Positions 1-5,159 of a stretch of DNA of 5,159 bases are shown here, piece after piece (the stretch's first letter is position 1; every line of letters starts with the position of its first letter). Origin of the DNA: a virus (Duplodnaviria > Heunggongvirae > Uroviricota > Caudoviricetes); IMG/VR virus record IMGVR_UViG_3300018477_000004, positions 1 through 5,159 of that record; one strand, given 5' to 3'. The translations under genes were made by a program, and so were the position numbers. The notes under the pieces are model-generated. The model was not told the origin of the DNA. It did no database searches and saw only the letters and a program-made list of their open reading frames with translations.

Positions 1-1
1 A

Positions 2-1312
2 AACGGCGGATTGTTGGCTGGTATCGGCGGCGTCAACTCAAACGCTCCGAGCGTAAATGACATCGGCAATACGCTTCAGCTTATCAGGCAGAACAATGAT
101 ATTGAGCGTTCAGGCGCTAACAATGTTGGGCTTACTGCTTTGCAAGGCCTTTCAGGCATTGCAGGGGTGTTTCAGCAGGAAAAGCAGGCTCAGCGGCAGA
201 AAGAATTTCAGCAGGCGTACGCTAATGCTTATGCGTCTGGTGATCGCGGTGCTTTGCGTCAGTTGGCTACTCAATATCCAGACCAGATTGAATCCGTCCG
301 TAAAGGCATGGGGTTCATTGATGAAGACCAGCGTAATTCTATCGGCACCTTAGCGGCTGGCGCACGCCTTGCGTCATCGTCTCCAGAAGCAATGCAATCA
401 TGGCTGCAAAACAACGCCGGTGAGTTAGCTCGTGTTGGCGTTAATCCTCAGGACGTCGCTCAGATGTACCAACAGAACCCGCGGCAGTTCGGCGAATTTG
501 TCGATCACCTGGGGATGAACAGTCTCGGACCCGAAAAATACTTTGACCTACAGGATAAAATGCAGGGTCGCCAGGTTACCATGCGCGGTCAGGATCTGGA
601 TTCGCAAACCGCCGCTCGGAATCAGGCAATCACAATGCGCGGGCAAGATATCCAGGCGAATTTAGGTCAGCAGCGCATTAATCTGGACGCAGAAACAAAC
701 CGCATTAACAACGAAAATAAGCGCCTTGACCGGATGCTATCAGCAGAAACTAACGACCTGAAGCGCCAGGAAATACAGAGCCGCATAGCAGCCAACAACC
801 AGCAGTTGCAGCAGAAGCAGCAAGCGCTAAATGATGGCTACAAAGACGGCATCAACACCCTCACAACCAGCATGTTCACTCTGAACGATATCGTTAGTTC
901 TCCTTCACTTAAGAGCATTACAGGCTTACGTGGAGTAATCCCCAACGTTCCAGGCTCACAGGCTGCAGACACTCAGGCACGACTTGATACCTTTAAATCC
1001 CAAGCATACCTGACAGCGGTTCAGGCCATGCGAGGCATGGGCGCACTTTCTGATGCCGAGGGCAAAAAGCTCGACCAGGCTGTTGGTTCGCTGCAGAACT
1101 CGCAGAGCGAGGAGTCCTTTCGTCGCAACGCTGGCGTCATCCTGAACACGCTCAACCAGAAGCGTAATGAGGCGGTTGGTAAGTACGTTCAGCAAAACGG
1201 TATCAAGCGAGTGGAAGCGCCTCAGGCTTCTATAGATTACCTGAAGCAACACCCCGAGCTGTCAATCGACTTCATTAATCGCTACGGATATCTTCCATCT
1301 TTGGGGCAGTAA
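2..1312 (+). CDS. Internal virion / DNA-ejection protein, P22 gp20-like by position; 5'-partial because the frame is open to the window edge
   Basis: Long ORF in frame 2 with no in-frame stop between position 2 and the TAA at 1310-1312. The track start at 11 is a TTG with no convincing upstream RBS, so the gene most likely begins upstream of the window. The protein is Q/N-rich with a predicted coiled-coil stretch (approx. nt 650-840, '...QQRINLDAETNRINNENKRLDRM...QQLQQKQQALN...'). It sits immediately upstream of, and is translationally coupled to, the SLT-domain ejection protein, as for gp20 before gp16 in P22-like phages. The functional call rests on position and composition, not on recognised sequence identity. 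Confidence 0.8.
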   Translation, partial: NGGLLAGIGGVNSNAPSVNDIGNTLQLIRQNNDIERSGANNVGLTALQGLSGIAGVFQQEKQAQRQKEFQQAYANAYASGDRGALRQLATQYPDQIESVRKGMGFIDEDQRNSIGTLAAGARLASSSPEAMQSWLQNNAGELARVGVNPQDVAQMYQQNPRQFGEFVDHLGMNSLGPEKYFDLQDKMQGRQVTMRGQDLDSQTAARNQAITMRGQDIQANLGQQRINLDAETNRINNENKRLDRMLSAETNDLKRQEIQSRIAANNQQLQQKQQALNDGYKDGINTLTTSMFTLNDIVSSPSLKSITGLRGVIPNVPGSQAADTQARLDTFKSQAYLTAVQAMRGMGALSDAEGKKLDQAVGSLQNSQSEESFRRNAGVILNTLNQKRNEAVGKYVQQNGIKRVEAPQASIDYLKQHPELSIDFINRYGYLPSLGQ

Positions 1313-1640
1313 ATGGCTAATTACCGTGATTTGTTAGAGCAGGCTGGCGCACGTTACGGTGTGCCAGAAGGGTTGATGACTGCACTGGGTGCCAAGGAGT
1401 CTTCTTACAACCCTGCCGCAGTAAGCTCCGCCGGGGCTGTAGGATTGACTCAGGTCATGCCTGGGACATGGCGTGATATGGGTTATACCGATGAGCAAAT
1501 GCAAAACCCCGAATATCAGGCTGACGCTGGCGCGCGCTATCTGGCAAAGATGTACCAGCAGTTTGGTAACTGGCGTGACGCTCTTCAGGCTTATCACGAC
1601 GGTCCCGGCAACGTTATGAAGGCAAAGCGTGGTGAATATA
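1313..1640 (+). other. Lytic transglycosylase (SLT) catalytic domain within the ejection protein
   Basis: The ES, GLTQ and AYHDG motifs occur in the canonical order and spacing for goose-type-lysozyme-like SLT domains. Domain boundaries are approximate. Confidence 0.8.
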
Positions 1641-3706
1641 CGCCAGGACCTGAAGGCCGCGGTTACGTTGATGATCGCTTTGCTCAATGGGCGGGTGACC
1701 CGGTGACAGACTCAACAGTCGAACAGCGCGCCACCTCTGCAAAGGTACATCCTCAGCAAGACCCTAACAACCCGTTTGCACAACTGGAAGCACAGTCATC
1801 CGAACAAGTATCGGCATCAGGCGTGCAGTCAGACCCAAATAATCCATTTGCTCAGATTGAGCAGCAGGCAGCCAGTCAGCAGCCACCTCAACCCGTAAGT
1901 TCTGTCGCACCGAAACCTGTTCAGCAGCAAGGCGGAATAATGTCTGACCTTGGTAATGGACTTGCTGAAACCGGGCGCGGCTTACTACAGGCAGGAATCA
2001 ACGTAGCGAACATACCTGCTGAACTCACTGATGCTGTAACAAGCGCGGCGGCTTGGGCTGGCGGTAAACTCGGCATTGGCGATGGTACATATCAACCAGC
2101 ACCACGAGTAACAACGCAGGGATTAGAGCAGGACTTTGGCCTTCAGCAAGGCGCGCTGACTCCACAAACGACAGAGGGAAGGGTATTTGCTGAAGCATTG
2201 CCTTACCTCACTCCTGCTGGCGTTGAGAGAGCGGCGGTACAGGCACCAACACTTGCTGGTCGAATTGCTCATGGGGCAACTCGACTTCTAGCAGAAAACG
2301 CAGTTGGATCACTTGCTGCAAACAGTGCGAAAGATGATGCGGAAGCACTCGCCACCGATTTAGGCGTTGGTGTGCTGGCTGGCGGTGCTATTAACGCTGC
2401 CGGACGTGGATTAGGTGCTGCTTATCGTGGTGTTCGTGGTTCGATAGCACCAGAAGCGCAACAGGCTATCAGATTTGCAGAACGTGAAGGAGTTCCTCTG
2501 CACACCACAGACCTGTTACAACCCATTTCCCGCGTCGGAAAAATGGCGCAGACGACAGCGGAAAATATCCCCCTGGCTGGCACAAGCGGAATGAGAGCAA
2601 CGCAACAGGAAGCGAGAAGCCAGTTGGTGCAGAGATTTGCTGATAAATTCGGTGAGTATGATCCAGCTGTTGTTATTGACAGCCTTAAAGCGAAAACATC
2701 AGGAATTCGTCGCGCTGCAGGAAATCGACTGGAGCAGGTTCAGAATGCTATGGCGGGAATAAACATTCAGCCTGCAAGAGCAATTCAGCAGATTGATACA
2801 GAAATATCTAACCTGCAGAAGCTTGGTAAGGTTGCTGATAACGAGACTATTTCAAAACTTCAGTCCTATCGTGATGAGCTTGTTCGCAATGCTGGTCCTG
2901 ATGGTCCGGTAAATCTGGATTTGAAGCAATTAAGCGATCTGCGCAGCCAGTTCAGAATGGACGTGAAGGGGGAGCGACCAGTGTTACCAAACCGTTCCGA
3001 TGCTGCCATTCAGCGCGTTTACAAGGCAATGACCGACGATATCAATGGTGCCATTGGTCAGAATCTTGGCAACGATACTCTCCGTAAATATCAGCAGGCC
3101 AATGCCGTCTACGCTGACGAAGCGGCGAAACTAAAGAATACCAGGCTGAAGAATGTTCTCATGAAAGGCGACCTGACGCCGGAAGTTGTCAACAACATGC
3201 TATTCAGCAAGAACAAATCGGAAATTAAGACTCTGTATAACTCAGTTGGTCGTGTTGGCAGGGCGCAAATGCGCAATGGCATCATTGGAAAGGCGATGGA
3301 GAAATCAGGTGGTTCCCCTGACCAGTTCCTTCGGCAGCTTAACATCCTGCAAAACCAGACTGGCATCACATTTAAAGGTCAGGAAGCCGCTTATCTGAAA
3401 GGATTGAAAAACTACCTGCAATCCACGCAGCAGGCTGCAAAAGCGGCAGTAACAACACCAACAGGGCAGCAAACCATCCCGTTCATTATCGGGTATGGGA
3501 CGGCAATGAACCCGGCGACAACTGGCGCAGCGGTAAGCTACGGACTTCTTACTCGCGCCTATGAGAGCGAGCCATTCAGAAATGCAATGCTCCGAATGGC
3601 AAACACCCCACGCGGATCAACAGCGTTTGAGAAAGCCATGCAGCAGGCGCAAAAGGCCATTAACGCCCTGACTCAAGGTGCCAAGTCTGATGCGTTGTCA
3701 GAATAG
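1313..3706 (+). CDS. Large ejection / internal virion protein with N-terminal lytic transglycosylase (SLT) domain; occupies the P22 gp16 position
   Basis: 797-codon ORF from ATG 1313 to TAG 3704-3706, with GGGG 7 nt upstream of the ATG. The N-terminal ~110 residues carry the family-1 lytic transglycosylase motifs: catalytic Glu-Ser in 'GAKESSYNP' (Glu codon 1397-1399), 'GLTQVMPGTW', and 'AYHDGPGNV' (AYNAG-like). These are followed by a low-complexity linker with two DPNNPFAQ(L/I)E repeats, a Gly/Ala-rich segment ('GVGVLAGGAINAAGRGLGAAYRGVRGS', approx. nt 2360-2450) and a long C-terminal region. Confidence 0.93.
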   Translation: MANYRDLLEQAGARYGVPEGLMTALGAKESSYNPAAVSSAGAVGLTQVMPGTWRDMGYTDEQMQNPEYQADAGARYLAKMYQQFGNWRDALQAYHDGPGNVMKAKRGEYTPGPEGRGYVDDRFAQWAGDPVTDSTVEQRATSAKVHPQQDPNNPFAQLEAQSSEQVSASGVQSDPNNPFAQIEQQAASQQPPQPVSSVAPKPVQQQGGIMSDLGNGLAETGRGLLQAGINVANIPAELTDAVTSAAAWAGGKLGIGDGTYQPAPRVTTQGLEQDFGLQQGALTPQTTEGRVFAEALPYLTPAGVERAAVQAPTLAGRIAHGATRLLAENAVGSLAANSAKDDAEALATDLGVGVLAGGAINAAGRGLGAAYRGVRGSIAPEAQQAIRFAEREGVPLHTTDLLQPISRVGKMAQTTAENIPLAGTSGMRATQQEARSQLVQRFADKFGEYDPAVVIDSLKAKTSGIRRAAGNRLEQVQNAMAGINIQPARAIQQIDTEISNLQKLGKVADNETISKLQSYRDELVRNAGPDGPVNLDLKQLSDLRSQFRMDVKGERPVLPNRSDAAIQRVYKAMTDDINGAIGQNLGNDTLRKYQQANAVYADEAAKLKNTRLKNVLMKGDLTPEVVNNMLFSKNKSEIKTLYNSVGRVGRAQMRNGIIGKAMEKSGGSPDQFLRQLNILQNQTGITFKGQEAAYLKGLKNYLQSTQQAAKAAVTTPTGQQTIPFIIGYGTAMNPATTGAAVSYGLLTRAYESEPFRNAMLRMANTPRGSTAFEKAMQQAQKAINALTQGAKSDALSE
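1760..1861 (+). repeat. Two copies of an in-frame 30-nt unit encoding DPNNPFAQ(L/I)E, separated by 42 nt, inside the ejection protein linker
   Basis: Copy 1 is 1760-1789 (gac cct aac aac ccg ttt gca caa ctg gaa) and copy 2 is 1832-1861 (gac cca aat aat cca ttt gct cag att gag). The peptide is conserved but 7 of 10 codons differ at the nucleotide level. Confidence 0.7.
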
Positions 3707-3795
3707 CTTCGCAAACACCAGGAACGTGCAAAAACCAAATATGTAGAACGCAATATTCAGCATATCTCTTTGCATAAATCCTCCGTAACTGATAG

Positions 3796-4056
3796 TTAGC
3801 TGCTGTCTTTTTTATATAGCTCTTTGAGCGTATCAAAGACAATTTTCTTAACCATATCAGATTGTTGTTCTGCCATACGCTCTGCATCGTCAATGTAAAC
3901 TGATGCAGAGCTTTGTTTAGCCAATGATTCTTCAATCGCTGCAATTATCTCTGAGTTCAGAGACCTGTTATTCATCTTCGCACGCTGTTTAATTTTCGCG
4001 TGGAGTTCATGCGGAAGTCTCAAGTGAAACTGCGCCTCGTCGTATTTGCTGTACAT
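3796..4056 (-). CDS. mnt: Mnt-like ribbon-helix-helix (Arc/MetJ family) transcriptional repressor
   Basis: Minus-strand ORF ending at the TAA complement at 3796-3798. The product ('...FHLRLPHELHAKIKQRAKMNNRSLNSEIIAAIEESL...DAERMAEQQSDMVKKIVFDTLKELYKKDSS') closely resembles P22 Mnt as I recall it ('...FNFRMPMEVREKLKFRAEANGRSMNSELLQIV...DAERLADEQSELVKKMVFDTLKDLYKKTT'). The start is placed at the ATG complementary to 4054-4056, which gives a P22-like N-terminal length and has GAGG about 8 nt upstream. The longest ORF would instead start at 4089 (11 codons longer). Confidence 0.85.
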   Translation of the reverse strand: MYSKYDEAQFHLRLPHELHAKIKQRAKMNNRSLNSEIIAAIEESLAKQSSASVYIDDAERMAEQQSDMVKKIVFDTLKELYKKDSS

Positions 4057-4129
4057 CCTTGATGCCTCACCAGTTGGGTGGAATGGCATCGTAACCTACT
4101 GGATAAATACTCAATAGTACCATTTCGGT

Positions 4130-4152
4130 ATGCAATCACATCATGGTTGCAT
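4130..4152. promoter_or_regulatory. Inverted repeat ATGCAA-N11-TTGCAT in the divergent mnt/tailspike intergenic region; candidate operator
   Basis: Perfect 6-bp arms at 4130-4135 and 4147-4152, read directly from the sequence. It lies between the divergently transcribed repressor and tailspike genes and overlaps a possible leftward -10 (complement of 4151-4156 = TATGAT). Any function is inferred. Confidence 0.25.
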
Positions 4153-4166
4153 CATATCATTCGTCT

Positions 4167-4170
4167 GGAG
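4167..4170 (+). promoter_or_regulatory. Shine-Dalgarno (GGAG) for the tailspike gene
   Basis: GGAG sits 7 nt upstream of ATG 4178. Confidence 0.5.
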
Positions 4171-4177
4171 CAATGAA

Positions 4178-4519
4178 ATGTCAGATATCACCGCAAATGT
4201 TGTGGTAAGCATGCCTTCGCAACTCTTCACTATGGCTCGTTCTTTTAAAGCCGTAGCCAATGGCAAAATTTATATCGGTAAAATTGACACTGACCCGGTA
4301 AATCCTGAAAACCAGATTCAGGTTTATGTGGAGAACGAAGACGGTTCTCACGTCCCTGTTTCGCAACCAATCATCATTAACGCTGCTGGTTACCCTGTAT
4401 ATAACGGACAGATTGCCAAATTCGTTACCGTGCAAGGCCATTCTATGGCTGTTTATGATGCGTACGGTGTGCAGCAGTTCTATTTTCCGAATGTGCTTAA
4501 GTATGACCCTGATCAGTTC
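4178..4519 (+). other. Tailspike head-binding (particle-attachment) domain
   Basis: This is the block conserved with P22 gp9 residues ~1-113. Similarity is lost right after 'KYDPDQ(F)'. Confidence 0.8.
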
Positions 4520-5138
4520 AAGATTCTAATAGAAGGAGATGATGGCTATAAATACATACCAAGTCTTAATAAAATAAAATCAGAAATACCAGCAGAATAT
4601 TTTCGAACAATATCTAGCGATGACCAATCAACACTTCAGAATGCTATTGATTATGCAACATCTAAAGGATGGTCAGTATTTCTTGAAACGGATAAAGTAT
4701 ATAGAGTTAGATCTGTCAATGTTTCTTGCATGTTGCGTGGATTCTCTTTCATTGAAAGGATTGAAGGAACATCTGAAACATTGATAAATATGATGAGTGG
4801 AGGTGGATTAAAAGATCTAACTATAAATGGAATGATAACGTCAGGAAATGACACCGTTGGAAATATTGTTTGCCAAGGGTTAACTTCTGTTTTATTTAAG
4901 AATATAAAATCAATTAATGCCGGTGGCCATAACATAACAATTAGAGATACTCCTGAAAATGGAGGAAATACAATTAAAGATTGTTATATTTCAGGAACGC
5001 GTGTTGGATATGGGATTTATCTTAGGAATGTGCGTGGGGAATCAATTAAAAATACAAAGATAACAAAATGTGCTAGTGATGGTCTTGCGTTATCAAATTC
5101 ATCATTTACTGAATCCCCTGTTGAAATTGTTGGTGTAG
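4178..5138 (+). CDS. Tailspike protein, 3'-truncated: P22 gp9-like N-terminal head-binding domain fused to a divergent AT-rich beta-helix receptor-binding module
   Basis: ATG at 4178 with GGAG 7 nt upstream. The frame is open to the window end with no stop, which is probably why the ORF track omits it. The N-terminus '[46 protein letters not shown]...[13 protein letters not shown]...NVLKYDPDQ' is near-identical to the P22 tailspike head-binding domain as I remember it ('[46 protein letters not shown]...'). Downstream of ~4520 the sequence is AT-rich and encodes motifs typical of right-handed parallel beta-helix depolymerases ('[25 protein letters not shown]', repeated 'N-x-I/V-x-x-C...G-x-x-G-I-x-L' rungs). 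The final 21 nt of the window are adapter and are excluded from the CDS. Confidence 0.9.
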
Positions 5139-5159
5139 AGATCGGAAGAGCACACGTCT
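5139..5159. other. Illumina TruSeq adapter sequence (AGATCGGAAGAGCACACGTCT); a sequencing or assembly artefact, not biological sequence
   Basis: Exact 21-nt match to the start of the standard Illumina TruSeq adapter, located at the extreme 3' end of the window. Confidence 0.9.

Follow-up and report, generated by a model that had tools for sequence, protein, structure and literature searches.

A gp16-type ejection protein of a P22-like phage with a putative lytic transglycosylase head acquired by recombination

Why would an ejection protein of a P22-like phage begin with a domain of the lytic transglycosylase kind, and where would that domain have come from? This question is raised by a gene at positions 1313-3706 of a 5,159-nucleotide (nt) stretch of DNA, hereafter the window, which is positions 1 to 5,159 of the IMG/VR virus record IMGVR_UViG_3300018477_000004 (Caudoviricetes). 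An earlier sequence-only reading placed the gene at the position of P22 gene 16 and described its product as an unusually large ejection protein with an SLT catalytic head, a repeat linker and a Gly/Ala-rich segment. Having followed up this description by sequence comparison, structure prediction and analogy with P22 and T7, we consider it probable that a P22-like temperate podovirus or prophage here encodes a gp16-type ejection protein, bearing an active SLT head and a linker that were acquired by recombination, and that the head would cleave murein locally at entry. Coordinates are collected in Table 1.

The head, the body and the gene slot

The SLT domain seen earlier at the N-terminus is indeed complete. 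The Pfam profile PF01464 matches residues 7-110 over its positions 2-110 of 117 (E=2.8e-25; 88.6 bits against a cutoff of 21.3). Aligned by HMMER with the sequences of the PDB, residues 4-102 fall on residues 453-560 of E. coli Slt70, gapless before residue 53, and Glu29-Ser30 stand opposite Slt70 residues 478-479, which we take to be its catalytic Glu-Ser pair. This E-S pair closes the first conserved helix, as is usual for the catalytic Glu in the family. BLASTP aligns the head with the N-terminus of T7 gp16 at 28% identity (E=2e-11), with Glu29 opposite the Glu of the T7 WTES motif; the catalytic Glu of T7 gp16 is E37 (PMC8954989). The GAG codon proposed from the sequence to encode the catalytic Glu is that of Glu29, and in an alignment of 82 SLT homologues this residue is invariant together with S30, A42, G44, Y76, Y94 and G97, while Q47, A93 and P98 are nearly so. 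Family 1 lytic transglycosylases, whose reaction breaks the MurNAc-GlcNAc bond and yields 1,6-anhydro-MurNAc, have a canonical G-L-M-Q as motif II and A-Y-N-x-G as motif III; here these read GLTQ (residues 44-47) and AYHDGPG (residues 93-99).

The predicted structure agrees with the alignments. An AlphaFold2 model of residues 1-207, built on the 82-homologue alignment, has predicted local distance difference test (pLDDT) values of 88-98 across residues 1-115 and a goose-lysozyme-like alpha-helical fold. Foldseek matched this model at probability 1.0 to Slt70 (E=1e-5), Pseudomonas aeruginosa Slt and MltC/D/E/F, and superposed it on the T7 core protein gp16 (9jyy_I) with a root-mean-square deviation of 3.1 Å over 132 columns. 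In sequence and in predicted fold, the head has every feature that defines a family 1 lytic transglycosylase. It has the catalytic domain, motifs and predicted fold of Slt70, MltC, MltD, MltE/EmtA and MltF; those enzymes, however, are cellular periplasmic or outer-membrane proteins with accessory domains of their own, whereas the domain here lacks a signal peptide and would be delivered by a virion.

Behind the head and the linker lies a body of the Sf6 gp13 type. It aligns with residues 138-601 of P22 gp16 at 35.6% identity (E=1.7e-77, BLASTP), and its homologues bear the precomputed Pfam label PF26808.1. By the homology of this body, the product is assigned to the P22 gp16-type ejection proteins. 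It is larger than P22 gp16 (609 residues), as the sequence-only reading had said, and also than Sf6 gp13 (665 residues). The alignments that reading had proposed with P22, Sf6 and T7 divide the protein in two, the body being common to the P22 and Sf6 types and the head alone to T7 gp16. P22 gp16 resembles it in the body (36% identity over ~470 residues), where both the Gly/Ala-rich helix and the C-terminal Gly-rich segment can be aligned, but has no SLT domain, and the muralytic activity of the P22 virion is attributed to gp4 (PMC5380687).

The earlier likening of the arrangement to T7 gp16 is borne out for the head. T7 gp16 (1318 residues) likewise begins with an SLT domain, whose catalytic Glu occupies the same motif and which leads into an extended non-globular segment (PMC8954989), and in both systems the SLT domain sits on the largest ejection protein. 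T7 gp16 is 520 residues longer, and a full-length BLASTP comparison with it gave no match at E<=1e-3; the head alone aligns. T7 gp16 also forms a pre-ejection core stack, which P22-like ejection proteins are reported not to do (PMC8954989). The protein studied here would, by analogy, work like the N-terminus of T7 gp16, and is not a member of the T7 gp16 family.

The place of the gene is that of P22 gene 16 in the P22-like (Lederbergvirus) ejection-protein cassette. It is the third gene of gp7-gp20-gp16, directly after a gp20-type gene and between the head-completion genes and the immI/tailspike region. Its start ATG abuts the TAA that ends the preceding gene, a GGGG lies 8-11 nt 5' of the ATG, and the upstream gp20-type product is 99% identical to residues 8-443 of IME10 gp20. 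The full window is 97% identical both to Lederbergvirus IME10 and to the tRNA-Arg prophage of E. coli S56, in which the gene order is gp4-gp10-gp26-gp14-gp7-gp20-X-mnt-tailspike, X being the SLT-headed gene. The synteny of gp7, gp20, the gp16 slot, mnt and the tailspike is common to IME10, Sf101, Sf6, P22 and the S56 prophage.

The Gly/Ala-rich stretch had been singled out at approximately 2360-2450 as a possible membrane-inserting or channel-lining element. That interval overlaps the true maximum, which starts ~27 nt earlier, and the stretch is not a special feature of this protein, since residues 341-370 align with P22 gp16 residues 156-185 and lie in the conserved body common to Sf6 gp13 and P22 gp16. 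Across 24 homologues, small residues are conserved at i/i+4 spacing; such spacing is glycine-zipper-like and typical of tightly packed helices. The full-length model places a helix at residues 343-374, with low confidence there. Residues 1-475 of P22 gp16 are reported to be enough for binding to membranes in vitro (PMC10883804, citing Perez et al.), and the P22 counterpart of the Gly/Ala stretch falls inside that part. In the region of residues 707-752, the SieA-escape positions G532 and P546 of P22 gp16 (PMC10883804) correspond to G718 and A731 here. A membrane or channel role is plausible for residues 341-370 and for residues 707-752; neither segment is particular to this protein.

Mosaic origin and distribution

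The source of the head becomes apparent when the window is compared at the DNA level with two related phages. Against Sf6, identity stands at 93% for nt 1-517, is weak or lacking in nt 518-1924 and returns at 95.6% for nt 1925-3776. Identity to Sf101 is 98.5% over nt 1-1930 and then ends. The joint lies directly before the conserved start of the body, GG(I/F)MSDLG…ETGRGL(L/V)QAG(I/V)NVANIP. Because the similarity switches so sharply at nt ~1925-1930, the 132 residues by which the protein exceeds Sf6 gp13 all come from the swapped block, and the notion that the extra length reflects a new whole-protein architecture fails: the body is 97% Sf6 gp13. Judged from these identity patterns, the head plus linker is a mobile cassette, acquired by recombination in place of the 75-residue Sf6 N-terminus.

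Comparison with named phages points the same way. Sf6 gp13 occupies the same gene slot with the same downstream context, but has an N-terminus without an SLT domain, and its gp20 partner differs in the C-terminal two-thirds. Conversely, Sf101 gp13 (911 residues, deposited as 'transglycosylase') and Dewey CDS0014 (875 residues) share the ~205 N-terminal residues, with the SLT domain and both motif copies of the linker, and gp20 essentially identically, but their bodies have a P22-like start and then diverge, BLAST similarity ending at residue ~580 (Sf101) and ~267 (Dewey). The same head, identical over ~205 residues, is thus carried on at least three bodies: Sf6-type (here, IME10 and phiKp_30), Sf101-type and Dewey-type.

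The swapped block extends beyond the head. The gp20 gene diverges from Sf6 gp12 over nt 518-1312, its C-terminal two-thirds, in the same block as the SLT head; overall the two proteins are 65% identical, and the last ~45 residues cannot be aligned. The gp20 N-terminus and the gp16 body, unlike the block between them, are 93-96% identical to Sf6. This joint divergence of the gp20 C-terminus and the gp16 head may be a matter of linkage alone, or the gp20 C-terminus and the N-terminal arm of gp16 may have co-adapted.

Other N-terminal heads on the same body were considered as proof of a general cargo slot and rejected, the candidates being products of prophage decay or assembly fusions. The head of P0236 is the gp7 N-terminus (PF25688, E=3e-110) and not a new cargo head, that of P0240 is the gp20 N-terminus, and P0238 is NinG fused to an Sf6-type start. 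The in-frame fusions of gp7 (P0236/P0239) and gp20 (P0240) to the gp16 body look like within-cassette deletions of decaying prophages, or assembly chimeras. A further representative, P0231, has a 200-residue coiled-coil head and comes from one contig. Among distant homologues of the gp16 body, P0485 (1043 residues) has a C-terminal InPase domain (PF18823, E=5e-56) and P0370 (1386 residues) a 785-residue N-terminal extension without a Pfam match; these additions may be cargo domains delivered with the DNA.

The SLT-headed form is widespread. The product is 98.9% identical to an unannotated IME10 ORF (open reading frame) and 94% identical to phiKp_30 BEI45442.1. When phage records were searched with the head at E<=1e-15, the best 30 of 35 records being considered, the matches listed included an identical head in IME10, phiKp_30, APC_JM3.2, Sf101, Huey, Dewey and ECO26.1, and heads of 50-63% identity in ejection-protein genes of other podovirus genera (IME_EC2, Skarpretter, Lumpael and Kosakonia phages), the latter frequently labelled "transglycosylase". 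Neither HK620 nor CUS-3 is among those best 30 of 35. At least 53 of 5,426 complete E. coli genomes hold at least 80% of a probe spanning the head and the junction. In protein clusters from a 5.8-billion-protein collection, the 797-residue form is a cluster of 1,295 sequences with the ORF uninterrupted; forms of 786-815 residues at 72-86% identity occur in Cronobacter, Klebsiella aerogenes, Kosakonia and Enterobacter; and two large headless clusters with the same body comprise 1,304 and 2,252 sequences.

The family was also surveyed through its best 150 representatives at 50% clustering. Among the 114 with near-complete bodies, the N-terminal arm has a median of ~55 residues and reaches at least 150 residues in nine. 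A Pfam SLT match was confirmed directly in four long representatives (P0442, P0483, P0479 and P0490), and the head was matched by phmmer in P0148 (the 797-residue form) and P0502 (the Sf101-length form). P0442 and P0483 are SLT-headed yet 31% identical over the full length. Because the architecture is seen in many phages, prophages and genera, and at 31% identity, we conclude that SLT-headed gp16 is recurrent and old, not unusual. Nor is its size: the description "unusually large" does not stand beside Sf101 gp13, the Dewey protein and family representatives of 973-1386 residues, and the 797-residue form is itself very common.

Annotation of the family is uneven. Existing labels for the SLT-headed form are RefSeq/PGAP 'lytic transglycosylase domain-containing protein', 'transglycosylase' in Sf101, and PHROG 21143. 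Headless 665-residue Sf6-type proteins also bear the SLT name in GenBank/RefSeq, as with VSe13 QOI68465.1 (L007 3276-5273) and the clusters P0235 and P0237. A Pfam search gives no SLT match for VSe13 gp13, Sf6 gp13 or P22 gp16, nor does an NCBIfam search for the latter two, so the name appears to have spread from SLT-headed proteins that share the body. In the IME10 record NC_019501.1, 31064-33457 (L001 4313-6706) is an intact 797-residue ORF without annotation as a coding sequence (CDS). In Kosakonia phage Kc237, an unannotated SLT-coding stretch (L008 6001-6480), 56% identical to the head, follows gp20 and precedes a 746-residue 'lytic transglycosylase' CDS that itself has no SLT match; a frameshift or a mis-called start has probably divided one long gene.

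Proposed role, rival explanations and the linker motif

The comparisons above show directly how the domains are arranged, that the catalytic motifs are intact, which fold is predicted, that the protein is a mosaic, where the gene lies and how widely it occurs. From the analogy with P22 and T7 we further infer enzymatic activity, presence in the virion, ejection, an envelope topology and an accessory role of the head. The SLT-headed protein would be packaged in the capsid alongside gp7 and gp20 and expelled via the tail at infection. Its body, residues 208-797, would form the inner-membrane or cytoplasmic end of a gp7*/gp20/gp16 trans-envelope channel, while the tethered head, with Glu29 as the acid catalyst, would cut glycan strands locally and widen the murein mesh for passage of the channel. 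P22 gp16 is found in virions, is released at infection and is required for DNA entry (PMC10883804, PMC8402733); it acts with gp20 at the inner membrane, is membrane-associated in vitro, and SieA-escape mutations map to it (PMC10883804). P22 gp7*, gp20 and gp16 are added one after another to gp10 and build a ~50-nm channel to the cytoplasm, of which gp16 is the inner end (PMC13622523).

We regard the head as a probable accessory, which would hasten entry where the murein is dense or highly cross-linked. Since there are phages that lack it although their body is 97% identical, it is probably dispensable, and an accessory role fits its patchy distribution on otherwise near-identical bodies. In T7, genome internalisation depends on the lytic transglycosylase domain of gp16 only if the peptidoglycan is highly cross-linked (PMC8954989, citing Moak & Molineux 2000).

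Several observations weigh against this proposal. No segment of the 797-residue protein reaches the hydrophobicity of a classical transmembrane helix, the Kyte-Doolittle maximum over 19 residues being 1.36, in the Gly/Ala-rich stretch, where the rule of thumb is ~1.6. The full-length AlphaFold2 model, built on a 24-sequence alignment, is of low quality (mean pLDDT 51); when its fold was searched against the PDB, the head gave GH23 matches and the body nothing credible, and a PDB sequence search returned SLT enzymes only, with no solved relative of the body. For these reasons the envelope topology is drawn solely from homology to P22 gp16. The S56 prophage still encodes a gp4-family protein, with which the head could be redundant. 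gp4 is listed as a P22 virion-associated lysin (PMC5380687), and since the S56 prophage retains this gene, the head would add to the gp4 function and not replace it. Finally, the sequence-only reading had allowed that close homologues of the same length and architecture might already be well characterised. They are abundant and automatically annotated, and in the accessible literature we found no experimental study (zymogram, virion proteomics or mutant) of the protein or of a close homologue.

An unlikely alternative, which nevertheless survives best, is that the head does not stay tethered: it could be cleaved off at the linker after ejection to become a free periplasmic enzyme, or a second, headless product could start at Met210. 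The predicted disorder of residues 129-207 would suit such cleavage, and P22 gp7 is processed by a host protease (record annotation; gp7* in PMC13622523). Met210 is nearly invariant, with a Shine-Dalgarno-like AAGG 7 nt 5' of its codon (window 1922-1942), but headless proteins of the Sf6 and P22 types, in which it cannot be a start codon, conserve it to the same degree, and no cleavage site is known.

That the head is inactive, and serves as a peptidoglycan-binding anchor or a structural collar like the T7 gp16 'wings' on the gp15 tunnel, is less likely still. The T7 domain also helps to build the periplasmic tunnel (PMC8954989), and motif II departs from the canonical form here and reads GLTG in two homologues. 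Among the 82 homologues, however, including every SLT-headed gp16 examined, the catalytic E-S pair and the remaining motif residues show no variation or almost none, and the Pfam SLT score is four times the family cutoff.

We find it hard to credit that the head works at a stage other than entry, such as lysing the cell from within, assembling virions or attacking competing cells. SLT domains do occur in endolysins and many other phage proteins (PHROG matches), but this one is fused in frame to an ejection protein within the late virion-structural cassette, the 50-63% identical heads of other podovirus genera also lie in ejection-protein genes, and P22-like phages have a separate lysis cassette. 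The last possibility, that the long ORF is an artefact in which a sequencing error or a prophage deletion has fused two genes, has true precedents in the gp7-gp16 (P0236), gp20-gp16 (P0240) and NinG-gp16 (P0238) fusions but is refuted by the identical uninterrupted ORF in the plaque-forming isolates IME10, phiKp_30, Sf101, Huey and Dewey, by its presence in the E. coli genomes and the 1,295-member cluster counted above, and by diverged forms in several genera.

We return to the SLT-headed protein as a probable tethered entry enzyme, and to what joins its two parts. The repeat linker reported earlier is present: residues 129-207 have no counterpart in P22- or Sf6-type proteins and hold two copies of a short acidic-aromatic motif, DPNNPFAQLE and DPNNPFAQIE, with a period of 24 residues. 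The two 24-residue units have 12 identical residues between them, nine of which use different codons, and therefore selection acts on the linker peptide. Synonymous differences between the copies hid the repeat from a DNA-level search. The pair is present in all close homologues, in the form DPxNPFAQ(I/L/V)E in Cronobacter, Klebsiella and Kosakonia.

DPNNPFAQ(L/I)E is one version of a family-wide, usually paired motif of gp16 N-termini, N-x-F-[AD]-[QE]-Φ, often followed by D/E, which is not limited to SLT-headed proteins (it occurs in P0371, P0386, P0397, P0404, P0406, P0410, P0445, P0459, P0479 and P0490). Several headless representatives start with MAN[PFVI]FDQFDE and have a second copy 10-120 residues later, and distant SLT-headed forms place one copy on each side of the SLT domain (NVFDQF twice in P0479, NMFAEF twice in P0490). 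In the N-terminal arms of 111 representatives (7,996 residues), F[ADNS][QE]Φ occurs 26 times against 2.8±1.7 in shuffles (maximum 9 in 200), about 9-fold above shuffles and ~11 times the body rate. Two longer variants, P0219 (886 residues) and P0227 (880 residues), have the SLT domain and both motifs, then a ~90-residue insert (…RPKGLIQEGNIDIHNRP…GKHLGIFDNP…) and then the body; a Pfam search with the insert gave no match.

The paired N-terminal motif is the least expected element of the SLT-headed protein. Lying behind the SLT domain, it is reminiscent of the T7 gp16 'molecular tape' (PMC8954989). It is possible, if rather doubtful, that the repeats are not a passive spacer but a version of a conserved docking peptide of the gp16 N-terminal arm. 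Such a peptide might, equally tentatively and by analogy, tether gp16 to the gp20 tube, or to the portal or scaffold during incorporation into the procapsid; the SLT domain could then perhaps be regarded as cargo inserted into the arm, a suggestion we hold no more firmly.

Features of the window and meaning of the finding

Table 1. Features of the window, with strand and the observation that defines each.
Feature	Position (nt)	Strand	Observation
gp20-type ejection protein gene, 5' end cut by window edge	2..1312	+	PF16928 Inj_translocase, E=3.5e-67
SLT-headed gp16-type ejection (DNA transfer) protein gene	1313..3706	+	797 residues; phrog_770 'DNA transfer protein', E=5.5e-239
SLT/GH23 lytic transglycosylase catalytic domain (predicted), residues 1-128	1313..1696	+	PF01464 match to residues 7-110, Slt70 alignment, model
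Codon GAG, Glu29 of E-S motif	1397..1399	+	Aligns with Slt70 residue 478 and T7 gp16 WTES Glu
Q/P/S-rich linker, predicted disordered, residues 129-207	1697..1933	+	pLDDT ~50 in head-only model, <40 in full-length model
Motif copy 1, DPNNPFAQLE, residues 150-159	1760..1789	+	Read from translation
Motif copy 2, DPNNPFAQIE, residues 174-183	1832..1861	+	Read from translation
Recombination joint of head cassette and body, residues ~205-206, between QQQ and GG	1925..1930	+	Sf6 similarity from 1925; Sf101 similarity until 1930
Sf6-gp13-type gp16 body, residues 208-797	1934..3703	+	97.1% identical to Sf6 gp13 residues 76-665
Gly/Ala-rich segment, predicted long helix, residues 341-370	2333..2422	+	53% G+A against 24% overall
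All-helical core of body, residues 437-706	2621..3430	+	pLDDT mostly 64-87, three short dips near 50
C-terminal Gly-rich, moderately hydrophobic segment, residues 707-752	3431..3568	+	Aligns with P22 gp16 residues 521-567

Downstream of the gene lie a convergent Arc/Mnt-type repressor gene (3796-4089, − strand) and then the start of the tailspike gene at nt 4178; a terminator and promoter scan 3' of the stop codon of the 1313-3706 gene found nothing above background. The repressor has an Arc domain and a Mnt C-terminal domain (Pfam). Its PHROG label 'partition protein ATPase' looks wrong, and the RefSeq start in S56 is shorter, equivalent to nt 4056. The tailspike gene (4178-5159) leaves the window at its end, and its head-binding N-terminus (to ~4520) is conserved among P22-like phages. 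Past ~4520 the GC content falls to 33%, against ~52% in the ejection genes, which suggests that this receptor-binding part was recently acquired.

The kind of protein described here, a virion-borne lytic transglycosylase fused to an ejection protein, is already known, and the SLT-headed form is named in databases. A full-text literature search found no accessible paper on SLT-headed P22-like gp16, though Casjens & Thuman-Commike 2011 (Virology 411:393), which lay outside the search, may catalogue it. A 2022 review describes P22-like phages as being without a lytic transglycosylase domain. This is true for the model phages and not for the P22-like group, in which the exceptions make up a sizeable natural subgroup comprising IME10, Sf101, phiKp_30, Huey, Dewey and many E. 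coli, Cronobacter and Klebsiella prophages. The practical gains are modest: the RefSeq SLT name on headless proteins needs correction, and the gene is absent from the IME10 record.

How the DNA channel of P22-like phages passes the peptidoglycan is poorly defined, and the sole reported activity is assigned to the tail adaptor gp4. The family supplies natural near-isogenic pairs: among 97%-identical bodies some have the head and others lack it, and a single head is found on three bodies. What a virion transglycosylase contributes to podovirus genome delivery is therefore cleanly measurable.

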